Positions 1,198 through 15,479 are shown, numbered from the stretch's first letter. The stretch is DNA of 15,479 nucleotides from a virus (IMGVR_UViG_2695420487_000018), one strand, 5' to 3'. The notes: generated by a model not told the origin, from the sequence alone. Numbers and translations are program-made.

Positions 1198-2859
1198 TTA
1201 CACCCCGCTAAATTCTTCCAGTTTCTGGCGGTGGCTGTCGCTTATATCAAAAGCAAAATCCTCATGCTCTGCCTGGAATGTACCAAACGCCATCAGCGCC
1301 GCTACGCTCGGGTCTATCTTGTTCGGTGATTTTTTCTTGTTCGGCTTGATATTGGCGTTCGCGTCACTCTGCATCACGACGTTACTCATCGACCAGGACA
1401 ACACCGGATCGCCACGATGCACAATCACCCTGCGGTTAACAAAAACTTCGAACGATTTCGCCGCCGGACTGAATCTGAGGTAGGTTTGCGGGAACGGCTC
1501 CACCTCAAAACCTGCCCCCTGTAATTGCGTTCTGAGATGCGTGGCGTTCCACGTATCAAAGCCCACCAGCCTGATATTAAATTTCTCCGCGTCCTGCATG
1601 ATGTCATCTCTGATCCGGTCGTAATCAATGCAGTCGCCAGGTGTTGTGCGTATCCAGCCTGCTTTAGCCCACTGACGATAGACAGCGCGGTTTTTATTGG
1701 CGGGGTTCTGTAGCTGGAACTCCGGCAGATAATGACGGGAAACCAGCATAATGGTTTTACCTACCGGAAAGGCATAGCACACGCTGGAAATATCGCTTGT
1801 GGATGATAAATCCAGCCCCGCGTAACACTCCTGGCCGTGTAAATCTTCCTCCGTGAACGTTCCGGCACACTCAGCCCATGCGCCGTTACCCATCCACGGG
1901 GTAGTCCCCTGACACCAGATATTAAATCGCTTTGTCATCATCTCCACCCACTGCGACGGAATACCCCGCGCTTTCTGGATGGTTGAGGCCAGTTTTTCAC
2001 GATCCACGGAAACATCAATATTAGGGTTCGCCTTTATCCACATCGCCGGATCATCAACCTCGTTTTCGTCGTCCAGTTCGTAAATCAGTACAAAAATTGA
2101 ATCGTTAACCTCTTCGCCGTCCAGGATCTGGCAGCAATAATCATAGTGCTGCTTACAGGCTGAAACGACGTTGCTGCCTGATGTGGTAATGGCAAATAAC
2201 AGCCCTTCGGGACGTGCGCCCATCCCCAGCTCAAGCGCGGAATAAACGCCGTTATCGGGGTGCAAGTGGTATTCGTCCACGATGGAAAGGCTTGGGTTTG
2301 TGCCCTCGATGGTTGCCGCTTTTGCTGCCAGCGGCTTTAACAGGCTGTTGCTTTTCGGGTGTATCACCTTATGCGCCTGAATATTCACCCGCCTGCGTAA
2401 CGGTCGGGATAAAAGGCACATCTGACGCGCATCATCAAAGACGATCCGCGCCTGGTCACGGCTCACCGCTGCGGTGTAGATATCCTGCTGACCGTTCTCC
2501 ATAATCAGAAACCAGTTAGCCAGAATCGCGGCGGTCGTGGATTTCGCATTTTTGCGCGGCACTTCGATAAAGGCGCTCGTATATTTGCGCCGTCCGGTGG
2601 CCTTAACCTTAAAGCCGAGGATGCACGCAAAGGCGAACTGCTGCCACGGCTCCAGCTCAATGGGTCTGCCACGCATCGGTCCTTTTACGTGCGGGCACAC
2701 CCTGGAAAAGGCAATAAACCGCTCCACAACCTCACGATCGAACGTGTAAAGGGGGCTTTTAAGGTCCGAAAAGTACCGTTTAACAGCCTGTTTTAACCGT
2801 TTACAGGCCGGAATTTTGCCCGTTTTTACGTCTTCTGCGTACTTATTCCAGGCGGTCAA
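1198..2859 (-). CDS. terL: Terminase large subunit (HK97/Terminase_1-like)
   Basis: 553-aa ORF; N-terminal ATPase region with P-loop-like VPRKNAKST, C-terminal nuclease-like region; start overlaps the TerS 3' end by 17 nt. Confidence 0.9.
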   Translation of the reverse strand: MTAWNKYAEDVKTGKIPACKRLKQAVKRYFSDLKSPLYTFDREVVERFIAFSRVCPHVKGPMRGRPIELEPWQQFAFACILGFKVKATGRRKYTSAFIEVPRKNAKSTTAAILANWFLIMENGQQDIYTAAVSRDQARIVFDDARQMCLLSRPLRRRVNIQAHKVIHPKSNSLLKPLAAKAATIEGTNPSLSIVDEYHLHPDNGVYSALELGMGARPEGLLFAITTSGSNVVSACKQHYDYCCQILDGEEVNDSIFVLIYELDDENEVDDPAMWIKANPNIDVSVDREKLASTIQKARGIPSQWVEMMTKRFNIWCQGTTPWMGNGAWAECAGTFTEEDLHGQECYAGLDLSSTSDISSVCYAFPVGKTIMLVSRHYLPEFQLQNPANKNRAVYRQWAKAGWIRTTPGDCIDYDRIRDDIMQDAEKFNIRLVGFDTWNATHLRTQLQGAGFEVEPFPQTYLRFSPAAKSFEVFVNRRVIVHRGDPVLSWSMSNVVMQSDANANIKPNKKKSPNKIDPSVAALMAFGTFQAEHEDFAFDISDSHRQKLEEFSGV

Positions 2860-3199
2860 GCTCGTCCTCTTCTTCTGTTTCCGGTGGATTTTTACGGCGG
2901 CTTATCGGGTCAAAACCGAGCAAGGAGGCCATTTTTATCATCACTCTTTCCGCGTCGGATTTCGCGCTTAATGCGGGGTTTCTGCTCTCTCCGCCCTGAC
3001 TGTTAACAATGCTGAACCCGCGCGCCGCAAGGTCTGCGACGGCTTTCCGGTATATCGAGTAATTGACGCAATACAGTTCCAGATTACTCCAGTCGGCGGG
3101 AGTCAGGTCACCCCGTTCCGCAAGCGGCCGCGATTTTTCCCGCCACTGCTTCACGGCGATATCATCCAGGTAGGCGGGGGCTTTCGGTGGTCTTGCCAT
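2843..3199 (-). CDS. terS: Terminase small subunit (P27-family-like)
   Basis: 118-aa ORF directly upstream of and overlapping TerL; acidic C-terminal tail EEEDELDRLE; size and position typical of HK97-type TerS. Confidence 0.75.
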   Translation of the reverse strand: MARPPKAPAYLDDIAVKQWREKSRPLAERGDLTPADWSNLELYCVNYSIYRKAVADLAARGFSIVNSQGGESRNPALSAKSDAERVMIKMASLLGFDPISRRKNPPETEEEDELDRLE

Positions 3200-3322
3200 G
3201 CTTATTTTTTCGCCAGATTATTTTTCAAAAAATTCCCGTGCATAAAAATTTGAGGAGGCGTTCGGTGCCCGGCGGGGTCGGGTTTGTCCTGAAAACGCCC
3301 CCCACCCCGTCATACAGCCTCA

Positions 3323-3505
3323 TCAGCGATTGCGGAAACATTCCATAACCTCGCGGTCACGGTCGGTTAATCGCTTCGCTGTGATGCGTTCTGCGCGTCC
3401 TGACGCTTTATCTTTATGCCCTGTTTCCTGTGTCTTCCATGCGTCACGCTGCCTTATAAGTCCACGGATAAGGCGGTTTTGTTCCCGCTCATTCATCAGC
3501 GTCAT
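3323..3505 (-). CDS. Small basic hypothetical protein (about 57-60 aa) between HNH and TerS
   Basis: ATG at 3505 or 3496 lies just upstream of, and out of frame with, the HNH stop (3489-3491), suggesting coupling; translation M(TLM)NEREQNRLIRGLIRQRDAWKT... is Arg/Lys-rich. Only the 3' part of the longer 3323..3727 track ORF is used; weak SD. Confidence 0.3.
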   Translation of the reverse strand: MTLMNEREQNRLIRGLIRQRDAWKTQETGHKDKASGRAERITAKRLTDRDREVMECFRNR

Positions 3506-3929
3506 ACATCCAGTTATTGCGGTTAGCGGCCCGTTCTTCCTCTTCATGAAATCCACCTGCGGCACGCTTGCTTTTTGTTGCCGGATCAAGCCATTTCGTT
3601 TTCTGGTTATGACACGCCTGGCACAATGGTTGATGGTTCCATTCGGGCCAGAAGAGAACATCATCACCGCCATTAATCGGGATAATGTGATCCACCACCA
3701 CGGCGGGCGTATATATCCCCTTCTCAAGGCATCGCACGCATAACGGGTTTTTACTCAGATACATGGCGCGGTATTTGTCCCACTGTCTGGAGTACCCACG
3801 CGCGCGGCGGTGTCCTCGTCTGGCATCCTCTGCACGCCATGCCGCCCGCCTGTGCTCCTCACACTTGCCGGACTTCACGCGCCTGTTACAGCCTGGTTCT
3901 GTGCATCGTCTTAATGGTTGCCACGGCAT
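3489..3929 (-). CDS. HNH endonuclease (terminase-associated)
   Basis: 146-aa ORF with Cys pairs and the HNH core ...VVDHIIPINGGDD...NHQPLCQACHNQKT; start overlaps the upstream gene stop (TGATG). Confidence 0.85.
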   Translation of the reverse strand: MPWQPLRRCTEPGCNRRVKSGKCEEHRRAAWRAEDARRGHRRARGYSRQWDKYRAMYLSKNPLCVRCLEKGIYTPAVVVDHIIPINGGDDVLFWPEWNHQPLCQACHNQKTKWLDPATKSKRAAGGFHEEEERAANRNNWMYDADE

Positions 3930-4225
3930 CAGTACACCCCCACATCACGGTAAGCCGTCCAGAGCGCGCCAATCGTCATGGGTACGCGCGTTTTTGCGTT
4001 ATCCGCTACCAGCTGGCGATTCTCGTACAGGTGAGCGATAAACATCATGCAGCCAATCTTTATGGCTGGCGTGAACTCCAGCCCGTCATCAAAGCGCCTG
4101 CCTATATGTATCTGGCACGCCTCAAGCGATGCGGCAATGTATCCGCTGATTAACTGGTCTTCCTCGTCGCCATCGATGCGGCAATGGAGTTTCACTTCTT
4201 CCAGGGTGATAAGTTCTTCTGTCAT
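3929..4225 (-). CDS. Head-tail connector protein (gp6-like family)
   Basis: 98-aa ORF; N-terminal LITLEEVKLHCRIDGDEEDQLI resembles the gp6-like connector signature; ATGA overlap with the upstream gene. Confidence 0.65.
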   Translation of the reverse strand: MTEELITLEEVKLHCRIDGDEEDQLISGYIAASLEACQIHIGRRFDDGLEFTPAIKIGCMMFIAHLYENRQLVADNAKTRVPMTIGALWTAYRDVGVY

Positions 4226-4560
4226 TTTTCCGCGCCCTCACGACAAAGAATTTCAAGGCGTGTCCTGGCGGCATCCGGCAGCGGCTGCCCGATGATATTC
4301 AGTACACGCCCCGCCAGCGGCCCCGTATTGACCTTTATCCGGCTGGTGGCGTTGATGTCCTTCCTGTAGCGTATCCATATCCTTACCGTTCCAGTCGCCA
4401 GTTCTGCACCCGATGAAATGGCCTCCTTGCTGCTGATCATGTTCACGCTTGCCCAGAGTGTGTGACCGTCCACCCACGTTTCGAGTATTTCGCCGGTTAT
4501 ATCCCTGGTCTGTTTCAGGGTCTGAATCGTTACCCTGTCACGCAGTCGCCCTATGTTCAT
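4222..4560 (-). CDS. Head closure / head-tail joining protein (Phage_H_T_join-like)
   Basis: Track ORF 4222..4602; likely start is the ATG at 4560, overlapping the portal stop (ATGA). About 112 aa, MNIGRLRDRVTIQ...VRIWIRYR... resembles head-tail joining proteins. Confidence 0.6.
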   Translation of the reverse strand: MNIGRLRDRVTIQTLKQTRDITGEILETWVDGHTLWASVNMISSKEAISSGAELATGTVRIWIRYRKDINATSRIKVNTGPLAGRVLNIIGQPLPDAARTRLEILCREGAEK

Positions 4561-5768
4561 TCCGGTTTTTCTCCCTCGCTGATTTTTACTTCCTGTTTCC
4601 ATGCCTGGCTGAACTCATCACCACCATCACGCGGGGACAGCCCTTCACGTTCGCGGGCTTCGTTCGGGCACATAACGCCGGATTTGATGCCGCGTTCATA
4701 GGTGGCAAAGCGTTCGCCAGGTGTGGCCCGTAACAGGTCCGCGCTGTCAAACTCCACCTGATACCGGATACCAGGTACAGGTGAGGCCACCAGCAGGGCG
4801 TTTTTTATCTGCTGCTCAAAGTTCGCCAGCCACGGGCGCATCGTCATGGTGAGAAATGCGCGGCTTGCCTCGCTGAAATTGCTGTAGGTGCTGTTGCTGT
4901 ATTCCTGCAAAAAAATCGGCGAGACGTTGAACATTCGGGCGATGTCTTCAATGGTGAAGCGACGGGAGGCCAGCCATTCAGCATCCTGATTACTCATGCC
5001 CAGCTGCTGATAGCTCATACCCCCTTCAAGGATGGGCGTTTTTCCGGCGTTTCTGGCCCCTTTGTAGCGTTCCAGTGCGGCTAATGCCTGTTTGCCCTTC
5101 ACGCCGTCCAGCCATTCGCCTGACGTGATAACCCCTGCCGCCATCATGCCATCACGCATCACGCTCGCGCCGTGGCGTTGTTGGGCCAGCCCAAGCCCCA
5201 GCGATTCGCGGCAGATGGTTACAGGTGAGCGCCCCATAAAACCGTCATCTGTGGAGTAACGAAGGTGGAGAACCTCCCACGGTAAATAGTTGCGGGTGTT
5301 TCCGGTGTAGGCGTCAGTGATGCAGTAGCGCCAGTTATGCTCACCTGTCTGCTCCACGTTCACCGACTGCGGCGGGTAAGGATGTAAAGCCACCGGAAAA
5401 CCATCACGCCCCCACCGAATCACCGCATAAGCATTACCGTTTAACAGGCAGTGGCGGATCATCATTCGCTTAAACTGGTAGGGGGTTTGCCACGCGTTCG
5501 GGCGCTCGTTGAGGATGTGATCGACCGGATGAGAATCAAGCCACTCGCGGGCCTCCTTCCCCTTCTCATTGCGTACCAGGTACAGGTAACACGGCATGGT
5601 AGCCACCGCCTCAGAGATGACCGTCACGACGTTCATGACGGCGGGCAGTGATTCCGCTGTCCCCGATGATACGTACTCACCCGCCCCCGTGTTCGATGTG
5701 CCGGCCAGCGCCATAAACTCATCAAGCGTCATGCTGCGCTGCTCTTTTTTTCTTCTGAAAGGCCACAT
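4557..5768 (-). CDS. Portal protein (HK97 family)
   Basis: 403-aa ORF directly after the prohead protease gene; size and sequence character of HK97-type portals. Confidence 0.85.
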   Translation of the reverse strand: MWPFRRKKEQRSMTLDEFMALAGTSNTGAGEYVSSGTAESLPAVMNVVTVISEAVATMPCYLYLVRNEKGKEAREWLDSHPVDHILNERPNAWQTPYQFKRMMIRHCLLNGNAYAVIRWGRDGFPVALHPYPPQSVNVEQTGEHNWRYCITDAYTGNTRNYLPWEVLHLRYSTDDGFMGRSPVTICRESLGLGLAQQRHGASVMRDGMMAAGVITSGEWLDGVKGKQALAALERYKGARNAGKTPILEGGMSYQQLGMSNQDAEWLASRRFTIEDIARMFNVSPIFLQEYSNSTYSNFSEASRAFLTMTMRPWLANFEQQIKNALLVASPVPGIRYQVEFDSADLLRATPGERFATYERGIKSGVMCPNEAREREGLSPRDGGDEFSQAWKQEVKISEGEKPE

Positions 5769-5769
5769 A

Positions 5770-6327
5770 TCACACCCCCGCTAAATCCGCCCACCAGCGG
5801 CGATTATCCGCACGCGGCATTTTTTCGGGGTGCTGCTCGTACAGGGAGCGGCGGGCCAGCTCCACGCCGGAATCAGGGTAAGCCGGTACGGATGTAACGG
5901 TAATTTCGTACAGTTCCGCCACCAGCACGGTGCGCACGCATGGATCTGTTGTGGTATCCCATACATCCTTACGGGAGCGAAAGCCAAAGCTCATGCCGGA
6001 TATATCACCACGTTTAACCAGTTCGATAACGTCCCGCCCTGTGCTGGTATCCGGTGGGATCAGTTCAAAACGTAACCCTGTGTCATCCTCTTCCAGTCTC
6101 AGCGTACCGGAACGGGTGCGCCCCAGTAACATGCTGTGGTCATGCTCATACAGGCCGCGAACGTCATTACCCACCGCAAGCCATTCAGTAAACGCCCCCC
6201 GCTGGAATTTTTCGTAAAACTCCCCCCATAGCAGCTCTGAAAGGTTATCCCAGCGAACAACGTAGCCTGTAAGCGTGTTGCTGCCGCTGGTGGTGATTTC
6301 CGATGACCGGATTTCCATACTCATCAT
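5770..6327 (-). CDS. Prohead maturation protease (HK97 family, S78-like)
   Basis: 185-aa ORF between capsid and portal genes; N-terminal ...TLTGYVVRWDN... and internal EHD motif typical of HK97 prohead proteases. Confidence 0.8.
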   Translation of the reverse strand: MMSMEIRSSEITTSGSNTLTGYVVRWDNLSELLWGEFYEKFQRGAFTEWLAVGNDVRGLYEHDHSMLLGRTRSGTLRLEEDDTGLRFELIPPDTSTGRDVIELVKRGDISGMSFGFRSRKDVWDTTTDPCVRTVLVAELYEITVTSVPAYPDSGVELARRSLYEQHPEKMPRADNRRWWADLAGV

Positions 6328-6381
6328 AATTTTTTCACCTGTAAAACAGAGAAGGGGCTTTTTAGCCCCTTCGGTGTGCTG

Positions 6382-7539
6382 TTAATCGTCGTCCTGCGGC
6401 AGTTCCAGAATCTTTATAGCGTTCGAATCCACCACGCCACCGCCTAAATATTTCTGCGTGAAAATTTTGATAAAGCCCGGCTCTGTCAGGTTGTCCGGTC
6501 TGGTGCGCACGCCCGTTTCATGATCAACGATGTAATAACCGCGTTTGAAGTCACCCAGGGCGATAACGTTATCCGGCATAAATTCCAGATACTCCACCGG
6601 AAGCCCCAGCAACGTATCAGGATCACCCGCCTGTAAACGGTCGCGCCAGATGTAATCGCCGTTCGCGTTCTTCACCTTCTGAAGTTTTGCCGCCGTCGTG
6701 GAGTTAACCACCCAGACCGCGTTTTTGCGGTATTTTTTACGTAATGCAAATTTCAGGTCGATCAGCGGGTCCGCAGATGTCCACGCCAGAGATTCGGAAG
6801 GTTTAATTACCTGCAACGTACCAAAATCACGCTCTTTGTCGTTCTTCTCTGCACGGGGTACGGATAAAAAACCTTTTGCTTTTTTGTCACCGTCGCCCAC
6901 AACCAGATCGCTTTCTTCGGTTTCCGTGAAGGTGTCGCCAATCTCACCCGTCAGCCATGAAAGGATGTCCACATCGGAAAAATCCACGATTTCCTGTGTG
7001 GTGCGCGGGTACGCATAGACCGGATACAGCTTAATGCTCACCTCGTTAATCTGCGGGGTGCTGGTCTGTTCGCGTGCCTTACCCTCTTCACCGTGGTTAA
7101 CGGTCGCACCGCCAGCGGAAACAAGCTGCTTAAACTCGTTGCTGCTGATTTTCTTCACGGTACAGATGCGGCGCATGGTGGATTCATCCGCCAGCATTCG
7201 CATGATTTCGGTGTTCAGCTCGGGGATAACGGTATAACCACCATCAGCGGGAACGCCTGTACTTAATGCGCGGGTTTCACCTGTCAGGATGTAGTTGCGT
7301 AGTTCTGCGGGGTCAGTGGTCTGACTGCTTTTACCTGGCTTGCTGCGCTCTTCGTCTGCAATGGCTTCAAGGCGGGAAATGTCTTTATCGAGGGATTCAG
7401 CTTTAGCGCGTAATTCGTCAAATTTTGCGCCCTCAGCATCGTTAAGACTGCGGTTTTCTTTTTCCGCGTTCTCCAGCATGTCGCGCATCTGATTTTTAAT
7501 GGCGGTTTTCTGCTGGCGTAATTCGATTATTCTCGGCAT
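6382..7539 (-). CDS. Major capsid protein (HK97 fold) with N-terminal coiled-coil delta/scaffold domain
   Basis: 385-aa ORF; first ~100 aa are coiled-coil-like (IIELRQQKTAIKNQMRDMLENAEKENRSL...), followed by a capsid-like body. Confidence 0.85.
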   Translation of the reverse strand: MPRIIELRQQKTAIKNQMRDMLENAEKENRSLNDAEGAKFDELRAKAESLDKDISRLEAIADEERSKPGKSSQTTDPAELRNYILTGETRALSTGVPADGGYTVIPELNTEIMRMLADESTMRRICTVKKISSNEFKQLVSAGGATVNHGEEGKAREQTSTPQINEVSIKLYPVYAYPRTTQEIVDFSDVDILSWLTGEIGDTFTETEESDLVVGDGDKKAKGFLSVPRAEKNDKERDFGTLQVIKPSESLAWTSADPLIDLKFALRKKYRKNAVWVVNSTTAAKLQKVKNANGDYIWRDRLQAGDPDTLLGLPVEYLEFMPDNVIALGDFKRGYYIVDHETGVRTRPDNLTEPGFIKIFTQKYLGGGVVDSNAIKILELPQDDD

Positions 7540-7546
7540 AAAAAAA

Positions 7547-7576
7547 GTCCTGGGGTTAAGTAAGGAACTCCAGGAC
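7547..7576 (-). promoter_or_regulatory. Hairpin immediately upstream of the capsid gene start; its 3' arm contains the only SD-like AGGA and is followed by U7 then AUG
   Basis: Minus-strand RNA GUCCUGG-AGUU-CCUUACUU-AACC-CCAGGAC-UUUUUUU-AUG; 7-bp perfect stem plus 3 further pairs after one mismatch. Confidence 0.45.
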
Positions 7577-7629
7577 GCGGCAAAAACTCAACCGTTTTTC
7601 ATAAGGAAATCAGCAATCGCACCGTTCGT

Positions 7630-7677
7630 TTTCCCGCCTGGTAATGAATATTGGCGAGAACATTAACAGGCGGGAAA
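7630..7677 (-). other. Long imperfect hairpin in the capsid-operon leader (11-bp perfect stem TTTCCCGCCTG/CAGGCGGGAAA plus 5 inner pairs, 14-nt loop)
   Basis: Read directly from the sequence; no U-run follows on either strand. Confidence 0.5.
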
Positions 7678-7754
7678 GTGGCCCCAGCGTCCTGGCACCA
7701 CGGGCGAGAATAATCATGATTCAGTTCGGGTAAAATATGCCGATCCGCTCAGTG

Positions 7755-7779
7755 AACAACGTGGAACAACCACGAACAA
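7755..7779. promoter_or_regulatory. 25-bp dyad motif AACAACGTGGAACAACCACGAACAA (core CGTGG-AACAA-CCACG) upstream of the capsid operon; a second copy lies at 14170-14194 and a half-copy at 252-266
   Basis: Exact or near-exact matches found by eye (1 mismatch between the two full copies); both lie inside runs of 10-bp-phased ACAA/TGTT. Confidence 0.55.
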
Positions 7780-7796
7780 ATAATTTACAAAACATG

Positions 7797-7820
7797 ACAA
7801 AAAGCCGGATTGCTCCGGCT
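7797..7820 (-). terminator. Rho-independent terminator ending the replication/regulatory operon
   Basis: Minus-strand RNA AGCCGGA-GCAA-UCCGGCU followed by UUUUUGU, 7 nt after the stop of the 7827..8099 gene. Confidence 0.65.
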
Positions 7821-7826
7821 GTGTGA

Positions 7827-8099
7827 TTATCTGTCCTGGTAATTTCGCCATATTTCATCACCAGCACCATCCATACCCATTTCGGCATAAGTGCGATCGA
7901 CCGCCTTTTTCAGGTCTCCGTAATTATCCGGCGGCTCCGGTGGCCTCTGTGCCTTCCTGGAACATTCCAGCCGTCGCATCGTGATGTGATGCCGTTCCTT
8001 GTCTGTCTCCACCAGTTGCATGACTTCACCCCATCGCGCCGACGCTCTCCGGTAAAAGCCTTTCGCCTCCAGTTCTTCCGCTATGCGGTCATGTACCAT
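7827..8099 (-). CDS. Small hypothetical protein (about 90 aa); possibly a PerC/ANR-like regulator (uncertain)
   Basis: Track ORF 7827..8108 starts at GTG; the ATG at 8099 has GGGGTGGGGA upstream. Motif AEELEAKGFYRRASARWGEVM is reminiscent of PerC/ANR-type proteins, from memory only. Confidence 0.55.
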   Translation of the reverse strand: MVHDRIAEELEAKGFYRRASARWGEVMQLVETDKERHHITMRRLECSRKAQRPPEPPDNYGDLKKAVDRTYAEMGMDGAGDEIWRNYQDR

Positions 8100-8111
8100 C
8101 GTCCCCACCCC

Positions 8112-8522
8112 TCAGAACGGAATATCATCACCGTAAGGGTCATCGCCTTCCGCTGGTGGCTGATTACCCTGTGTGCCTGTGGTCTTGCGTCTGTTCCCGC
8201 CAGGACGTGCCGCACGGGCACTGATTACGCTGTCTGCAATAACCTGATACCCCCGCCGCGTTTCCCCGTTCTGTCCGGTCCACTGGCTTACCTGCATCGT
8301 GCCGGATACGCTGGCAACATCGCCTTTTTGATGTTTAGCCAGGAAATCGGCCTGTTTGCCAAATGCGATAACCGATAACCATAACGTCGCCTGTCCGTCA
8401 TGTGCCTGGCTGCATGGCAGCGATACCGCCATACGCGCCAGCGTCATCGGTGTTCCCTTGCTGGTCTGTTTTACCTGCGGGTCGTCCACCAGCCGCCCGT
8501 AAGCCGCTATCTGTGCTGTCAT
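8112..8522 (-). CDS. ssb: Single-stranded DNA-binding protein
   Basis: 136-aa ORF; OB-fold-like N-terminal region, Gly/Pro/Gln-rich linker, acidic C-terminal tail ending DDIPF (SSB signature); ATGA overlap with the upstream gene. Confidence 0.85.
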   Translation of the reverse strand: MTAQIAAYGRLVDDPQVKQTSKGTPMTLARMAVSLPCSQAHDGQATLWLSVIAFGKQADFLAKHQKGDVASVSGTMQVSQWTGQNGETRRGYQVIADSVISARAARPGGNRRKTTGTQGNQPPAEGDDPYGDDIPF

Positions 8523-8770: not shown

Positions 8771-8803
8771 TTGCCACCTCAATTTATATATATATAGAAA
8801 CAT

Positions 8804-9120
8804 GTGCGGGTTATGCGGGTTATTGGGTTATCTTAGCGTGCTAACCATTTTTTATCCTTTTATATCAGCATGTTGCAAAACGCCCTGTTTATTATTTGCT
8901 CACCACATAACCCGCAAAACGCTCAAAATAACCCGCAAACGGGGTTTTTTCTGCGGGTTACGCATGACTGTCCGGTGTTACTTCAGTTATTCGCCTGCGG
9001 GTTATAATCGTGCTTTTGCGGGTTATAAATGCCCTTTTGCGGGTTACGTGCGGGTTATTGATTTCCTTTATATTCATGCGCTTAATACACTTATACACAG
9101 GATAACCCGCATAACCCGCA
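8804..9120. repeat. Iteron-type replication origin: about 12 copies of GCGGGTTA(T/C) (8 forward, 4 reverse) plus AT-rich tracts
   Basis: Forward copies at 8806, 8815, 8953, 8997, 9018, 9039, 9050 (and degenerate 8824); reverse ATAACCCGC at 8907, 8928, 9102, 9111; AT-rich 8780-8800 and 8840-8900; directly downstream of the rep gene. Confidence 0.8.
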
Positions 9121-9142
9121 ATTTTTTTCCTCACACAGGGGA

Positions 9143-11275
9143 TTAATCTTCATCATCAGGCTGGAACATCAGCACGTAAAAAACATGCTGCTTACCCCCA
9201 ATCTTGCCCAGCGCCTTTTTTTTGTATCGGCGATCGCTTCCCTTCTCCAGCATTCCGGCAGCATCCAGGGCACGCGCAAAATGCGCCGGATTAAATCCCT
9301 TCGCTATCTCACTCTCAAACACGTGCGGGAACGTGTAATAGCGCATCTCGTCATCTTCGTTGCGAATGCTCCCTTTTCTGTATCCGGCAAGCTCTTTAAT
9401 CGGTAAATCACGCTCATCTGTATTGGGGTACGGAAGGTAGCGGCTAAACCCAAACGACGACAAAAACGCCTCAGCCTGTTCAACCATCTGTTTAAATTCC
9501 CTGTTACCTGTGCCGAACTCCTTCACCCAGGCATTAAAGTTATGCTGTATCGCGTCGCGGCATTCCTGCACGACCCAGCCAGTTACATGACCGGAAAGCA
9601 CAAGCGCGGCCTCCAGTATGGCGAAACGTTCACCCACGCGGTGGACCTGCTCGCCGTAACTCTCCGGTATCAGGTTGCGCCACCGTTCGCGGCATTCCCT
9701 TACCGTGTCCTTTGCCTCCTGCTGGTGGCCTGCCAGCCATTTAACCCACTCACGACCCGCCGCCCCGTGATTTGCTGTCCAGGCATCCTTTAACGCGTCA
9801 GCATGTTCCTTACCGTTGCTGTATTCGTGAAATTTCGTGGCTTTTTCCATCGGAACGTTAAGCAGTCGGACAAGCTGCCCCGCCTTAACTTTTATCCCCT
9901 CACTTTTGAGGAATGTCTCAACGTCCATTTCTCCGGTGCTGATTGCCACCGTTCGCCAGTGTTTGATCTCCCTGTTGCCGCCATCCTTCGCCCCCTGCAA
10001 TTTCCCTGAACCGTTAAACAGCGTATAAGCAGACGTTGACACTTCCCGCGCATTTCCGGCCTGGCCTATCTCATCCAGTGGTAAAAGCCCGTCATTATGG
10101 GCCTCGGCCTCATTGGCAATACCTAACGCCGTGCCGTACCAGGTCAGCCGCTGCGCGTCCGGCTCTCCCCATAAACTTGATGCGATGTTCTGCGTGGTGG
10201 TCTTACCTGCCGATGACTGTTCGAAAAGATGCACCCCGAAGCCGTCAGCACCCACAAGGCCAATTAAAGGCGCTGCCAGTGACGTTGCCACACCCAGTAT
10301 CATTGAGGCATTACCGCCAGCCAGCCGCGCCACGCTGTCGCGCCAGCCATCCGCCGTGCCCGCCACGGAATAACCGTTAATCGCGGCGCTTTTTCCGGTA
10401 AACAGGATCGGTTTTTCAGATTCACCAATGATCGAACCGTCCGGCATGATGTACGCGCCAAAATGCCAGCCCGTTGTTGTGCTTAACTGCCATTCCTCAT
10501 GGCTTCCGCTTAACTGCATCCAGTCCGCCAGGATTGCCCTGTATTTGCCGTTGGTTGTCACGTTCAGCCCGTGATCTTTAAGTAACCGCCAGCCGTCACG
10601 GTCGCCGATACCACCACACGGGATCGCCATTGTGATGACTTTATGGTTTGCGGTTTTTTTCCAGCGCATCACGCGGTAATGCTCTTTACCGATCGTCCCC
10701 GTTCCCAGTAGTTCAAGCGGAGAACATAACCACGTCTCAGGCCGGATAATTTCGCCTGACTGCTTATCCACTTTGGGCGTTACCCAGAAAACACCATCGG
10801 CGCGACTTTCAACGCGTGGCTTTAATTCGTCATCGCTATGGCTTCCGGTATCTTTTTTCTTTACCGGAAACTCAATAACCAGACCATCAGAAAGATTCTG
10901 CCGCTCACGGGCCAGATATTCGCGCCAGTTCTCCACCTTCTGACCGTGCATTCCTTCGGGGTAAAAATTTGCGTCCTGAATATCTGCCGCCGCCAGCTTC
11001 TGACCAATCTTTTTGGTCTCCACCAAATCCAGTTCTCCGGCCTGGTACAGCCTTACGCGTTTTTTTCCATCCGGAACAATTTTCAGCGCATCAAGTTCGG
11101 CAAGCTGATTTGGCCCAAGCCACACAGGCGGAACATTATCGCCGGATGCGGGGCCATCCTGCTCCTGCCATTGTTTCGCGTGCGACCAGGCATCACTACC
11201 CGCGAAAATAATTACCTCTGTGTCTTTGTGTTTTATTCCGCGTGGCTGTTTTTTTACGTTCGGTGCCAGTTTCAT
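9143..11275 (-). CDS. Replication initiator, primase/helicase-type (P-loop NTPase; DUF927/D5-like family suspected)
   Basis: 710-aa ORF; Walker A-like FEQSSAGKTT; position immediately upstream of the iterons matches pri-rep genes of satellites. Confidence 0.8.
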   Translation of the reverse strand: MKLAPNVKKQPRGIKHKDTEVIIFAGSDAWSHAKQWQEQDGPASGDNVPPVWLGPNQLAELDALKIVPDGKKRVRLYQAGELDLVETKKIGQKLAAADIQDANFYPEGMHGQKVENWREYLARERQNLSDGLVIEFPVKKKDTGSHSDDELKPRVESRADGVFWVTPKVDKQSGEIIRPETWLCSPLELLGTGTIGKEHYRVMRWKKTANHKVITMAIPCGGIGDRDGWRLLKDHGLNVTTNGKYRAILADWMQLSGSHEEWQLSTTTGWHFGAYIMPDGSIIGESEKPILFTGKSAAINGYSVAGTADGWRDSVARLAGGNASMILGVATSLAAPLIGLVGADGFGVHLFEQSSAGKTTTQNIASSLWGEPDAQRLTWYGTALGIANEAEAHNDGLLPLDEIGQAGNAREVSTSAYTLFNGSGKLQGAKDGGNREIKHWRTVAISTGEMDVETFLKSEGIKVKAGQLVRLLNVPMEKATKFHEYSNGKEHADALKDAWTANHGAAGREWVKWLAGHQQEAKDTVRECRERWRNLIPESYGEQVHRVGERFAILEAALVLSGHVTGWVVQECRDAIQHNFNAWVKEFGTGNREFKQMVEQAEAFLSSFGFSRYLPYPNTDERDLPIKELAGYRKGSIRNEDDEMRYYTFPHVFESEIAKGFNPAHFARALDAAGMLEKGSDRRYKKKALGKIGGKQHVFYVLMFQPDDED

Positions 11276-12000: not shown

Positions 12001-12185
12001 TAATGCACCTCTTTTAATTCATACACTGCTGAAATAATGACTTGTGATAAGCCATATTCTGATGATTCGCTTCTCACCGCAGCAATAGCCGTCTGAACAT
12101 TAACAGCCTTCACATTCTGAGCGATACCAATTGTGTGGCCTAGTGGGTTAACAGCGCTGGCAAATACACGGAAGGTTTTAAGCAC
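12000..12185 (-). CDS. Hypothetical small protein (about 62 aa)
   Basis: Track ORF 12000..12215 begins at TTG; the GTG at 12185 has AGGGGG 7 nt upstream and overlaps the upstream stop. Confidence 0.4.
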   Translation of the reverse strand: MLKTFRVFASAVNPLGHTIGIAQNVKAVNVQTAIAAVRSESSEYGLSQVIISAVYELKEVH

Positions 12186-12642
12186 GGCACACCCCCTGAC
12201 GAATACGGGCGACAAAAATCAGATGTGCGTGCGGCAGCTGGGCGCGGGCTTCGCGTTCAGTGGCTGCGGTAACGGTGTAAATATCAATGCTGCTGTGGTG
12301 GCACTGCATAAAGCGCCAGACAAAGTAAGGGCGTGCGGATACAGCCATGTGAAAGGCTCCCAGATGAATTTTAAGGAGTCTCGCTACTACGCTGCTAAAC
12401 ATGGTGGCGAGACGTAACAGGGTTAGCAGACTGGTCATCTGGAAACCAGCGAGCACAAAGGCTCCCCCGTTACGCCCCGCCATAATGCGGGTATGGGTAG
12501 GTTTACGGACACAAAAAAACCGCTTATCGGATGTGGGCGGCTGTCCGCCAGATGTATTCAGGCTGCTAAACCCGGTCGCCATGTGGGCGACGGGGGAAGC
12601 ATACAGCCCCGTGATAATTTTTTGCAAGCGGTTTTTACGCAT
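12178..12642 (-). CDS. Hypothetical protein; C-terminal about 55 aa paralogous to the 12635..12907 product
   Basis: Track ORF 12178..12684; ATG at 12642. C-terminal motifs FVWRF, TEREAR, ARIRQG are shared with the upstream gene, with third-position differences (GTC/GTG, CGC/CGT). Confidence 0.45.
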   Translation of the reverse strand: MRKNRLQKIITGLYASPVAHMATGFSSLNTSGGQPPTSDKRFFCVRKPTHTRIMAGRNGGAFVLAGFQMTSLLTLLRLATMFSSVVARLLKIHLGAFHMAVSARPYFVWRFMQCHHSSIDIYTVTAATEREARAQLPHAHLIFVARIRQGVCRA

Positions 12643-12907
12643 GATGTGACCCCTGACGAATACGGGCGGCAAATACAGCAACACAACCTGACGGGCAACG
12701 GCTACGCGCTTCGCGTTCCGTCCAGGCGGTTACGTGGATGATTTGAGATTCTCCGGCACTCAGTGCCAGAAAACGCCACACAAAGGCCGTTTGTGTGTGT
12801 ACAAGGTGTGGTATATGATTTACAGCAACCATAACGGCTCCTAGTTTACGTTGTTGGTTAGAAGCCCTGCGAGTGGTAACGACACTTGCGGGGCTTTGTC
12901 TTTTCAT
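12635..12907 (-). CDS. Hypothetical small protein (65-90 aa), first gene of the leftward operon; paralog of the next gene's C-terminal domain
   Basis: ATG at 12907 (AAGG upstream) or 12832 (AGGAG 5 nt upstream); same conserved motifs as the downstream paralog. Confidence 0.5.
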   Translation of the reverse strand: MKRQSPASVVTTRRASNQQRKLGAVMVAVNHIPHLVHTQTAFVWRFLALSAGESQIIHVTAWTEREARSRCPSGCVAVFAARIRQGSHHA

Positions 12908-13706: not shown

Positions 13707-13895
13707 TTAATGAACTGCCTTGCAGCTATCCTTCCAGGCCAGAACCTCGGATAAAGACCAGCCAACGGAACGACCGCCAAGTTTACGACGTGATGGGAAT
13801 TGTCCGGCCTTTTCCAGGCGGTAGCGACACGTACGGCTAAGGCCGGTTAGTTTTTCGCATTCTTTTTCACGTATAAACCGATCAGTGCTTAACAC
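13707..13895 (-). CDS. alpA: AlpA-family transcriptional regulator (excisionase-like HTH)
   Basis: 62-aa ORF ...KECEKLTGLSRTCRYRLEKAGQFPSRRKLGGRSVGWSLSEVLAWK... matches the AlpA pattern; GTG start with AGGGGGG 6 nt upstream; sits next to int. Confidence 0.8.
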   Translation of the reverse strand: MLSTDRFIREKECEKLTGLSRTCRYRLEKAGQFPSRRKLGGRSVGWSLSEVLAWKDSCKAVH

Positions 13896-14047
13896 TATTG
13901 CCCCCCCTTTCGTTTCTTAAAGAGTCATCAGGTGTCTTATTGTGTCGTATTGTTCCCGCTAGAGTGATGAATGGCAAATATTGAGGATGTATGATTTACA
14001 GAAAATGAAACAGTAAGAATAAAATCTTTTAAATTCATGTTAATACA

Positions 14048-14094
14048 AAGGCATAAAATATTGTTTCATGCCTTTTTTCTCGCTCTTTAAAGAG
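14048..14094. other. Hairpin AAGGCAT-N13-ATGCCTT followed by TTTTCT on the plus strand, then a perfect 12-bp palindrome CTCTTTAAAGAG (14083-14094)
   Basis: Read directly from the sequence; lies between int and alpA; the strand on which it would terminate is ambiguous. Confidence 0.4.
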
Positions 14095-14169
14095 TGATTC
14101 GCTAGTGTATAAAAAACCAGTGACACATTAAAAATCAGCCACTTATAAATCTGTATGCTTTTTCGCCTC

Positions 14170-14220
14170 TTGTTCGTGGTTGTTCCACATTGTTGCTCAT
14201 TGTTGCACGTTGTATCTGTT
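14170..14220. promoter_or_regulatory. Second copy of the 25-bp dyad motif (rc AACAATGTGGAACAACCACGAACAA) within five 10-bp-phased TGTT units, upstream of alpA
   Basis: 14171-14220 reads tgttcgtggt/tgttccacat/tgttgctcat/tgttgcacgt/tgtatctgtt; one mismatch relative to the 7755-7779 copy. Confidence 0.55.
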
Positions 14221-14261
14221 CGCATATACAGTATGCGCATACTGAAAAAACACGAAAAAAA

Positions 14262-15479
14262 TTATTTTCTTCTGGCTACTGGTAGCGTGGTTACGTTTTC
14301 ATGTGTTCCCGCCAGTATCCCTAACCGCTCCGTCCACATATCCAGCGCATTGCGTTTAGCATCCAGATAACGGGAATGATTATAAACTCGCTGCATTCCT
14401 GGCATCTGGTGGCCTGTAAGCTGCTCCACGACATGCGGATCAACGCCTAAATCGTTCAGCATCGTTGTAAAGGTGCGCCGGATGTCATGCAGTGACCAGT
14501 GAGGATGATTAAGCCTCCTGTGCGCTAATCTTCCATACTGCGATACGCTGGCCTCCTGTTTCACTTCCCCCAGCAATAAGCCCGTGTGCCTGTTCTGCTC
14601 CACCAGCTGCGTGACGAACGGCAGGATCGCTTCCGGTATGGGCCGGAATATTGCGACCTTCGTTTTGCTGTGCTCCTTCGGAACGGTCCATAGCATTTCC
14701 GTAAAATCCCACTCTCCGATCTCCGATAACCTCAGTTCTACCGTTCTGGCTCCGAAGACAATCAGGAGGCGGATTAACGCGACGTAGTAAGGGGAGAATA
14801 TTTTTTTGTCCAGTGCCTGCAATAATTCGCCAAGTTCTTTGTTACTTAAGACACGTTCGCTTATATCCGGTTTTTTCCCAACGTCCGCCACGTTCAGATC
14901 GTCCAGAACGTTGCTGATTGCATAGCGCCGCCTACGGCAGAACTTAAGCGCCTGTTTGCACGCCTGTAGCACGAATCCGGCAGTAACAGGCGTTCGCTTT
15001 GCCACCTGGTCAAAACAGGCCAGCCAGTGCCGTAGCTCGCATTTATCCAGCGGCATAGCACCAATCTGCTGTATTACGTGATTATTAAGTCGCCTTTTCA
15101 GGGCGATATAATCCACGCGGTTTTCCTTTACGTAATACTCAAGCCAGTAGGTGAGCGCATCGCCAACCGTTACCGGCTTTAACGCTTCCTGTACGGTGTA
15201 ATTAAGCTCATGACGTGGATTTTTCCCCTCTGCCAGCCATGCGCGACACTGGGCGGCTTTTTCCCTGGCTGATTTCAGGCTCAGATCAGGATAACTTCCC
15301 AGCTTAATGCGTTCGGGTCGTGTCTCCCTTCCCGTTCCGGCCCTGTATGTGAAATACCAGGTCAATTTCCCTGATGTTAAATATTTCACGCTCAGGTTTC
15401 CGCCATCACTATAAAACGTGTTTTTCTCCGCTGGCTTACCATGAAGTTTCCTTAGCAAGGTATCGCTCAGTTTGTTCAT
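14262..15479 (-). CDS. int: Tyrosine site-specific integrase (P4-like, with N-terminal arm-binding domain)
   Basis: 405-aa ORF starting at the window edge; catalytic-domain motifs HDIRRTF and RVYNHSRY; N-terminus GNLSVKYLTSGKLTWYFTYR typical of arm-binding domains. Confidence 0.9.
   Translation of the reverse strand: MNKLSDTLLRKLHGKPAEKNTFYSDGGNLSVKYLTSGKLTWYFTYRAGTGRETRPERIKLGSYPDLSLKSAREKAAQCRAWLAEGKNPRHELNYTVQEALKPVTVGDALTYWLEYYVKENRVDYIALKRRLNNHVIQQIGAMPLDKCELRHWLACFDQVAKRTPVTAGFVLQACKQALKFCRRRRYAISNVLDDLNVADVGKKPDISERVLSNKELGELLQALDKKIFSPYYVALIRLLIVFGARTVELRLSEIGEWDFTEMLWTVPKEHSKTKVAIFRPIPEAILPFVTQLVEQNRHTGLLLGEVKQEASVSQYGRLAHRRLNHPHWSLHDIRRTFTTMLNDLGVDPHVVEQLTGHQMPGMQRVYNHSRYLDAKRNALDMWTERLGILAGTHENVTTLPVARRK

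Follow-up and report, generated by a model that had tools for sequence, protein, structure and literature searches.

Non-canonical head and packaging gene order in a very probable EcCIEDL933-type capsid-forming satellite

Phage-inducible chromosomal islands of the capsid-forming type (cf-PICIs) are the closest described systems to the DNA analyzed here, a 15,479-bp stretch of viral sequence (IMGVR_UViG_2695420487_000018; the whole stretch is called the window below) whose head and packaging genes run in an unusual order. The prototype, EcCIEDL933 of E. coli O157:H7 EDL933, was singled out for its "unusual genetic organisation", and its packaging module differs from that of the helper phage HK106 in both organization and sequence (Alqurainy et al., bioRxiv 10.1101/2022.09.08.507074). 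When nine genes of the island (1786-1794) were each mutated, transfer was abolished in all but 1792, where it was severely reduced; the small capsids are encoded by the island, and only tails are needed from the helper (10.1101/2022.09.08.507074). Proteobacterial cf-PICIs share a conserved organization, capsid-protease-portal-connectors and then hnh-terS-terL, and two Firmicutes lineages have other orders; capsid and TerL trees indicated three independent cf-PICI origins, well apart from phages (10.1101/2022.09.08.507074). A follow-up preprint described a T=4 capsid structure and reported that the adaptor and connector determine tail compatibility.

The window is very probably a cf-PICI of the EcCIEDL933 type integrated in tqsA, and the unusual order is that of its packaging operon. 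We base this assignment on a 15-kb island with an integrase, an AlpA regulator and a DUF927 replicase, without tail or lysis genes, whose major capsid protein (MCP) is identical at 383 of 385 positions to PDB 9GYI, the cryo-EM model of the EcCIEDL933 capsid according to the depositing paper. The element is satellite-sized and site-specifically integrated, and every substantial gene lies on the minus strand. Pfam models identified the backbone of a PICI (integrase, AlpA-type regulator and primase/replicase), and hidden Markov models (HMMs) identified its own capsid morphogenesis genes (MCP, prohead protease, portal, adaptor and closure) and its own packaging genes (HNH, TerS and TerL). Of the SatelliteFinder cfPICI model, the window has 11/11 core components and zero forbidden ones (tail, holin). 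Among the 29 open reading frames (ORFs) of the window scanned against Pfam and PHROGs, none matched a tail, tape-measure, holin or endolysin family, and the ORFs without any match (145-357, 385-615 and 14040-14240) are too small for a tail module. EcCIEDL933 has the same layout (int-alpA-rep-...-capsid-protease-portal-connectors-hnh-(1792)-terS-terL), gene content and size (~15.4 kb) but is not identical in sequence, its MCP having two substitutions relative to that of the window. The window shares 99.3% DNA identity over 97% of its length with islands of E. coli O157:H7 and other Shiga toxin-producing E. coli. Of 5426 complete E. coli genomes, 361 contain its head and packaging module (coverage ≥80%); the module's DNA is ~97% identical to typical O157:H7 copies and 99.1-99.3% identical to minority strains that carry the island in tqsA. 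The unusual order is real but not new, being a published and conserved hallmark of satellites of this known family. Earlier publications already cover the element, the order of its genes and what each gene does, and no new biology is claimed for them; the additions made here are a two-block correction of the order, a probable cos spacer at 3200-3322, an ancestral hairpin after the MCP gene and ahead of the other genes, and evidence for independent recombination of the head and packaging sub-modules.

The initial annotation had read the operon, in transcription order, as MCP, protease, portal, head closure, gp6-like adaptor, HNH, TerS and TerL. HMM searches showed this order to be exact, with all eight genes on the minus strand, and the family calls on which it depended, those of the MCP and portal included, were all upheld by Pfam, PHROGs and TIGRFAM-type models. 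The span given for the module, 3929-7539, covers MCP through the adaptor only; HNH, TerS and TerL occupy 1198-3929. The first gene encodes the HK97-fold MCP (6382-7539; PF05065 1.6e-61, phrog_10). As read from the sequence, its N-terminal ~92 aa are a delta/scaffold domain and the mature protein begins at S93, where STGVPAD (S93-D99) fits the SxGxxAD motif described as the mature N-terminus in the EcCIEDL933 capsid-structure preprint. It is followed by the S78 prohead (head maturation) serine protease (5770-6327; PF04586 6e-47, phrog_80) and the portal (4557-5768; PF04860 4e-90, phrog_12), which starts 1 nt after the protease stop. Hc1, a head closure/completion protein of the SPP1 gp16/HK97 gp7 type (4222-4560; PF05521 1e-23, phrog_25, TIGR01563 gp16_SPP1), probably starts at the ATG at 4560, which overlaps the portal stop and is the RefSeq start in the closest complete genome (L001); the longest ORF reaches 4602. 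The HK97 gp6-like head-tail adaptor, Ad1 (3929-4225; PF05135 2e-11, phrog_40 5e-36, TIGR01560), overlaps Hc1 by 4 nt. The HNH endonuclease, a packaging accessory of HK97-type cos systems (3489-3929; PF01844 1.7e-8, phrog_144 1e-44), has a 17-nt overlap at its 3' end with a RefSeq-annotated 60-aa ORF (3323-3505; phrog_3173 7.5e-37). By position, counting 1786 as the capsid gene, this ORF is the homologue of EcCIEDL933 gene 1792 (g1792), and it was detected in 55 of 80 related IMG/VR loci. TerS (2843-3199; P27/Terminase_4 family, PF05119 6.5e-23, phrog_83) and TerL, with ATPase and nuclease domains (1198-2859; PF03354, PF20441, phrog_9 1.7e-179), overlap by 17 nt. Directly 3' of terL, also on the minus strand, lies a conserved 93-aa ORF of unknown function (903-1184; phrog_1561 1.3e-56), present in 21/80 IMG/VR loci (39-97% identity) and in the genome loci L001 and L005. 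Three units make up the operon: MCP with a hairpin; an overlapping or abutting run from protease to g1792, which appears from these junctions to be translationally coupled; and TerS-TerL, with the phrog_1561 ORF, after a cos-like spacer.

The canonical order that had been set against this one, portal, protease, MCP, connector and closure after the terminase, was seen in HK97, VW-6S, D14E and a set of outgroup loci. In the HK97 record, the order is TerS-TerL-portal-protease-MCP-Ad1-Hc1-tail genes and HNH lies at the right end of the genome, and the Pseudomonas phages VW-6S (MCP 37%) and D14E (MCP 40%), the nearest true-phage MCP homologues, run (HNH-)TerS-TerL-portal-protease-MCP-connector-joining-tail. 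We surveyed, by tblastn with the window proteins, the best 80 IMG/VR loci by MCP alignment (MCP identity 64-100%) and took as an outgroup control the best 80 IMG/VR loci nearest the VW-6S MCP; the band of 40-60% MCP identity falls outside both samples. All ingroup loci (80/80) had the order MCP, protease, portal, (Hc1), Ad1, HNH, (g1792), TerS, TerL. Five further relatives showed the same order, namely genome loci (Shigella, Citrobacter, Erwinia, Gilliamella) and vB_KppS-Ant, a "phage" of 16.5 kb. In the outgroup, portal preceded MCP in 77/77 loci, protease preceded MCP in 78/78, TerL preceded portal in 71/71 and Ad1 preceded Hc1 in 4/4. The comparison proposed in the initial annotation, with HK97-like phages and with capsid-forming satellites, places the window with the satellites. 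By gene order alone, ingroup and outgroup separated with no exception (80/80 vs. 77/77), which makes the order a cheap and reliable annotation diagnostic, and the finding made from raw sequence recognizes a feature that separates cf-PICIs from defective prophages.

The permuted order is a fixed derived character of this clade and not noise. The window has the capsid-protease-portal-connectors, then hnh-terS-terL, organization of cf-PICIs, whereas an HK97-like (pro)phage would have the canonical order followed by tail genes; here the order is permuted or reversed and tail genes are absent. Three internally reversed blocks had been proposed. Reversal holds for MCP/protease/portal and for Hc1/Ad1, but HNH-TerS-TerL keeps its canonical internal order. 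What is truly non-canonical is that the head genes stand upstream of the HNH/cos/terminase cassette, with their sequence reversed on the same strand and Hc1 and Ad1 swapped, while the HNH, cos, TerS-TerL junction itself stays canonical. On a virion map, the integrase, regulation and replication modules would separate the head genes from terL. By simple reasoning, a single inversion cannot yield a reversal on the same strand, and at least three transposition-like events are needed. No intermediate, either a tailed phage with MCP before protease and portal or a relative with 40-60% MCP identity, was found among 12 genome-contig loci, and the phage collection has a gap in MCP identity between 58% (satellite-like records) and 40% (true phages). 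HK97-like siphophages, including HK106, VW-6S and D14E, share with the window an HK97-fold MCP with a delta domain, the S78 protease, portal, Ad1/Hc1, an HNH-dependent cos terminase, a post-MCP hairpin and an HNH gene beside TerS-TerL across cos. They differ in running TerS-TerL-portal-protease-MCP-Ad1-Hc1 and then tail, in an MCP that is ≤40% identical, in T=7 capsids and in having complete modules for tail and lysis.

Other proteobacterial cf-PICIs (KpCIDSM30104, EcCIGN02175, vB_KppS-Ant LR881103.1 and Pasteurella Pmp8 OR544139.1) have the operon order and the conserved g1792-terS spacer in common with the window. Their proteins are 53-83% identical, with adaptor and closure the most variable (Hc1 32-53%); a subset is without a detectable Hc1, and accessory genes after terL vary. 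Firmicutes cf-PICIs likewise steal tails and have the same minimal complement of functions for head and packaging, but are of independent origin, one lineage beginning portal-protease-capsid and the other HNH-TerS-TerL (10.1101/2022.09.08.507074). The subgroup lacking Hc1 comprised 16/80 IMG/VR loci (L029-L037, L049, L051, L055, L064, L067, L086 and L093) and Erwinia psidii (L008), with Ad1 directly after portal. In these loci, the portal-Ad1 junction had no space for Hc1, and tblastn found no trace of it elsewhere in the locus.

Divergence was not uniform along the operon. Between locus L030 and the window, HNH, TerS and TerL are 88-92% identical (dS ~0.5) and MCP, protease, portal and Ad1 are 57-81% identical (dS 1.3-2.2). 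Because of this discordance, the head and packaging sub-modules appear to recombine independently. Some relatives with an identical MCP bear other integrase or replicase modules. In locus L023, HNH was 87% identical amid neighbors at 96-99%.

The 123-nt spacer between g1792 and terS (3200-3322) is the probable cos or terminase recognition region, because of its nucleotide conservation, a break in a related linear record and its HK97-like layout. The blocks GGGGTGGGGG, CCTCAAATTTTTAYGCACGG and ATTTTTTTGAAAATAA are kept among elements with proteins only 65-80% identical, and across diverged cf-PICIs the spacer is better conserved in nucleotides than the flanking genes. LR881103.1, a linear record derived from induced particles, breaks within the spacer: its start lies 22 nt ahead of terS and its end shortly past the g1792 homologue. 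Reading its ends as the exact cos ends was rejected: ~75 nt of conserved spacer are absent from the record, which supports the region only. The position of the spacer fits the HNH, cos, TerS layout of HK97. A cos in this place, between HNH/g1792 and terS, would give packaged DNA with terS-terL at its start and HNH at its end, the arrangement of HK97. The published cf-PICI accounts (Alqurainy et al. and the follow-up preprint) do not map the position of cos.

A GC-rich hairpin with a short T-run lies directly after the MCP stop (6351-6372, minus strand; terminator scan, fold z-score −3.5), within the 54-nt spacer between MCP and protease. It looks like a leaky terminator or an mRNA stabilizer. 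Of 53 distinct spacers between MCP and protease in related elements, ~48 had an equivalent hairpin with a differing stem sequence. VW-6S and D14E also have one, and the one after HK97 gp5 is annotated as a putative terminator. Because these three phages carry it after MCP, the hairpin is ancestral; for the same reason, its interpretation as a cf-PICI innovation explaining the gene order was rejected. In the satellite, it precedes all remaining genes of the operon.

Upstream of MCP, a control region (7540-7826, minus strand) contains a terminator-like hairpin after perC (7803-7820), a near-palindrome (7755-7789) and a hairpin with 17-nt arms (7630-7677). The near-palindrome, TTGTTCGTGGTTGTTCCACGTTGTT, is operator-like and sits ~220 nt upstream of MCP, counted from the start of the gene, with an inverted copy (96%) in the int-alpA spacer (14170-14194) and another copy (77%) near the att end (252-286). 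Its 16-nt core was found twice, where 0.17 occurrences are expected. Among loci with ≥99% MCP identity, 13/13 had the copy upstream of MCP, and the motif may act as a shared operator.

By analogy with the near-identical prototype, a helper siphophage would induce the island via AlpA, and the island would excise and replicate with its DUF927 replicase and iteron origin. One minus-strand operon would then be transcribed. The MCP, its delta domain removed by the S78 protease, would assemble on the portal into small T=4 procapsids. HNH, TerS and TerL would recognize and cut the island's own cos, which we place in 3200-3322, and package the ~15-kb genome, and Hc1 and Ad1 would close the portal and offer a docking surface for helper-made tails. 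The 383/385 MCP identity suggests that helper induction, small island-encoded T=4 capsids and reliance on helper tails hold here as well. Several points weigh against this account of the window. What it says of induction, T=4 capsids and tail hijacking comes from experiments on a slightly different prototype. The promoter scan found no sigma70-like promoter upstream of MCP on the coding strand, which would fit an activator-dependent promoter. The position of cos is itself an inference; the ends of LR881103.1, with ~75 nt lacking, do not define the cut site.

One explanation of the order, which we consider possible but doubtful, is that it is a selected design and not a frozen accident. Placing MCP first, before the ancestral hairpin, would create an expression ladder with MCP far above protease, portal and connectors, and these at or above terminase. 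It would also, on equally tentative grounds, suit an operon that works without a phage late antiterminator and keep HNH-cos-TerS-TerL intact and exchangeable at the att-proximal end of the island, with packaged DNA that would still start at terS-terL and finish at HNH, as HK97 DNA does. Retention of the hairpin and T-run with differing stems (~48/53 spacers; z-score −3.5) is consistent with such a ladder, as are the coordinates of the genes downstream of it, which are tightly overlapped or coupled. By our own arithmetic, a T=4 capsid (as in the follow-up preprint) needs ~235 MCP per 12 portal subunits. The discordant divergence of head and packaging sub-modules in L030 would fit an exchangeable cassette, and a second cf-PICI lineage, in Firmicutes, also has head genes before hnh-terS-terL (10.1101/2022.09.08.507074). 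However, the hairpin is no innovation, since HK97, VW-6S and D14E have it in the canonical order, and four spacers were without it. The Lactococcus/Enterococcus cf-PICI lineage functions with HNH-TerS-TerL first (10.1101/2022.09.08.507074), and a Bartonella element with tails is also scrambled on the same strand, so shuffling is possible without any such logic. The argument draws on sequence, and a frozen founder rearrangement fits the data equally well. The published cf-PICI accounts (Alqurainy et al. and the follow-up preprint) do not mention terminators or stoichiometry and do not discuss an adaptive order.

A defective HK97-like prophage that lost its tail and lysis genes, with the rest scrambled by decay into a functionally meaningless order, is a very improbable source of the operon. 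The proteins have homologues among the HK97-type head and packaging proteins, RefSeq labels the genes simply as phage genes, and some relatives are truly degraded: 12/72 loci had a truncated or interrupted gene. In one such degraded cf-PICI, of Rosenbergiella sp. YN46 (L006 5923-6926), portal residues 1-251 are fused to TerL 471-553, the connector, HNH and TerS genes having been deleted. In the window, however, all eight genes are intact and have dN/dS values of 0.01-0.30 (pairwise, against relatives at four divergence levels, on plus-oriented loci only); this purifying selection on every gene argues against a decaying prophage. Every gene was ≥90% covered by a single stop-free HSP in 60 of the 72 loci in which seven core genes were detected. 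The same order recurs in >85 loci across genera at 53-81% protein identity, the backbone is of the PICI type (AlpA, DUF927 replicase), the nearest phages are ≤40% identical in MCP, and the near-identical prototype is a functional, mobilizable element. The initial annotation had argued from the gene order against simple descent from a defective prophage; its conclusion holds, but the main support is other evidence, namely the PICI backbone, the absence of tail and holin genes, the near-identity to EcCIEDL933, conservation across genera and purifying selection. This rival is effectively refuted already.

An autonomous miniature phage or a producer of particles like a gene-transfer agent (GTA), in place of a satellite, is hardly credible: related ~15-16.5 kb sequences are filed in GenBank as phages (LR881103.1 vB_KppS-Ant and OR544139.1 Pmp8) and the Rhodobacter GTA capsid 6TB9 is the second-best solved-structure match of the MCP (E 9e-47), but no tail, tape-measure, holin or endolysin family was found in the window by Pfam or PHROGs, the "tape measure" annotated in LR881103.1 is without Pfam support, the prototype depends on helper tails, and, whereas a GTA packages random host DNA and the RcGTA type is a head-tail cluster without integrase, replicase or packaging site, this element carries an integrase, AlpA, a replicase and a conserved cos-like site of its own, and only its MCP resembles that of RcGTA.

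The backbone of the cf-PICI lies upstream of the packaging operon on the minus strand. The window ends at the start codon of a tyrosine integrase gene (14262-15479; PF13356 and PF00589). Other genes on this side are the AlpA regulator, the activator of PICI induction (13707-13895; PF05930 5.4e-17), a DUF927 primase/helicase-type replication protein (9143-11275; PF06048 1.4e-48) and, directly upstream of the operon, a PerC-family regulator (7827-8108; PF06069 3e-43). A dense array of direct and inverted TGCGGGTTAT iterons 3' of the DUF927 gene (8798-9127; repeat analysis) is the probable replication origin. PerC-like genes are reported to be common in Gram-negative PICIs, EcCIEDL933 included, and reportedly the copy in EcCIEDL933 fails to activate LEE1. 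Classical Gram-negative PICIs (EcCICFT073, EcCIED1a and EcCIMP1) share the integrase-AlpA-replicase left arm and the PerC-like gene, but are without capsid, portal, connector and TerL genes and redirect helper packaging instead. The att core, TGCTGTTAT (129-137), forms the junction with a 5' fragment of host tqsA (window 1-~137); these 9 nt are identical at both junctions of L001, where the island splits the annotated tqsA. An SSB gene (8112-8522) also lies upstream of the operon. It is intact in the window and annotated as a pseudogene with an internal stop in the 99.3%-identical O157:H7 island (L001 12073-12483). Several small PHROG families of unknown function lie between the integrase end and the replicase side of the window. 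Two diverged Icd-like cell-division-inhibitor paralogues lie in tandem (12178-12378 and 12635-12835, minus strand) and are 51% identical over 45 aa. Both match NF033153; in the closest genome, H2, a single one is annotated and a partial pseudogene follows it.

Some observations concern other records. LR881103.1 (L004), OR544139.1 and PQ569648.1 are cf-PICI-type elements filed in GenBank as phages. In vB_KppS-Ant, a 765-aa ORF after terL (L004 2036-4333), annotated as "tail length tape measure protein", had no Pfam match. Two uncultured Bartonella metagenome-assembled genomes (L013 7651-18327, and L015) have an integrase-linked HK97-type module whose genes, all on one strand and with tail genes among them, are thoroughly scrambled: portal, tail chaperone, a protease::MCP fusion, HNH, major tail, Ad1, Neck1, tail terminator, Hc1, TerS, TerL, tape measure and distal tail. 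We rejected these loci as another capsid-forming satellite layout because PHROGs identified the interspersed tail genes, and as BaGTA because TerL and portal sizes and gene order differ. An integrase-bearing island of Nitrosospira multiformis Nl7 (L010 3904-13424) has a lone MCP homologue with 33% identity, near which neither portal nor terminase was detected; the MCP is followed by a 438-aa protein without a Pfam match and a retropepsin-like aspartyl protease (PF13650/PF13975). At the end of the 106-kb record of Klebsiella phage P12620-1 (102-105 kb) lie an MCP and a portal resembling those of cf-PICIs.

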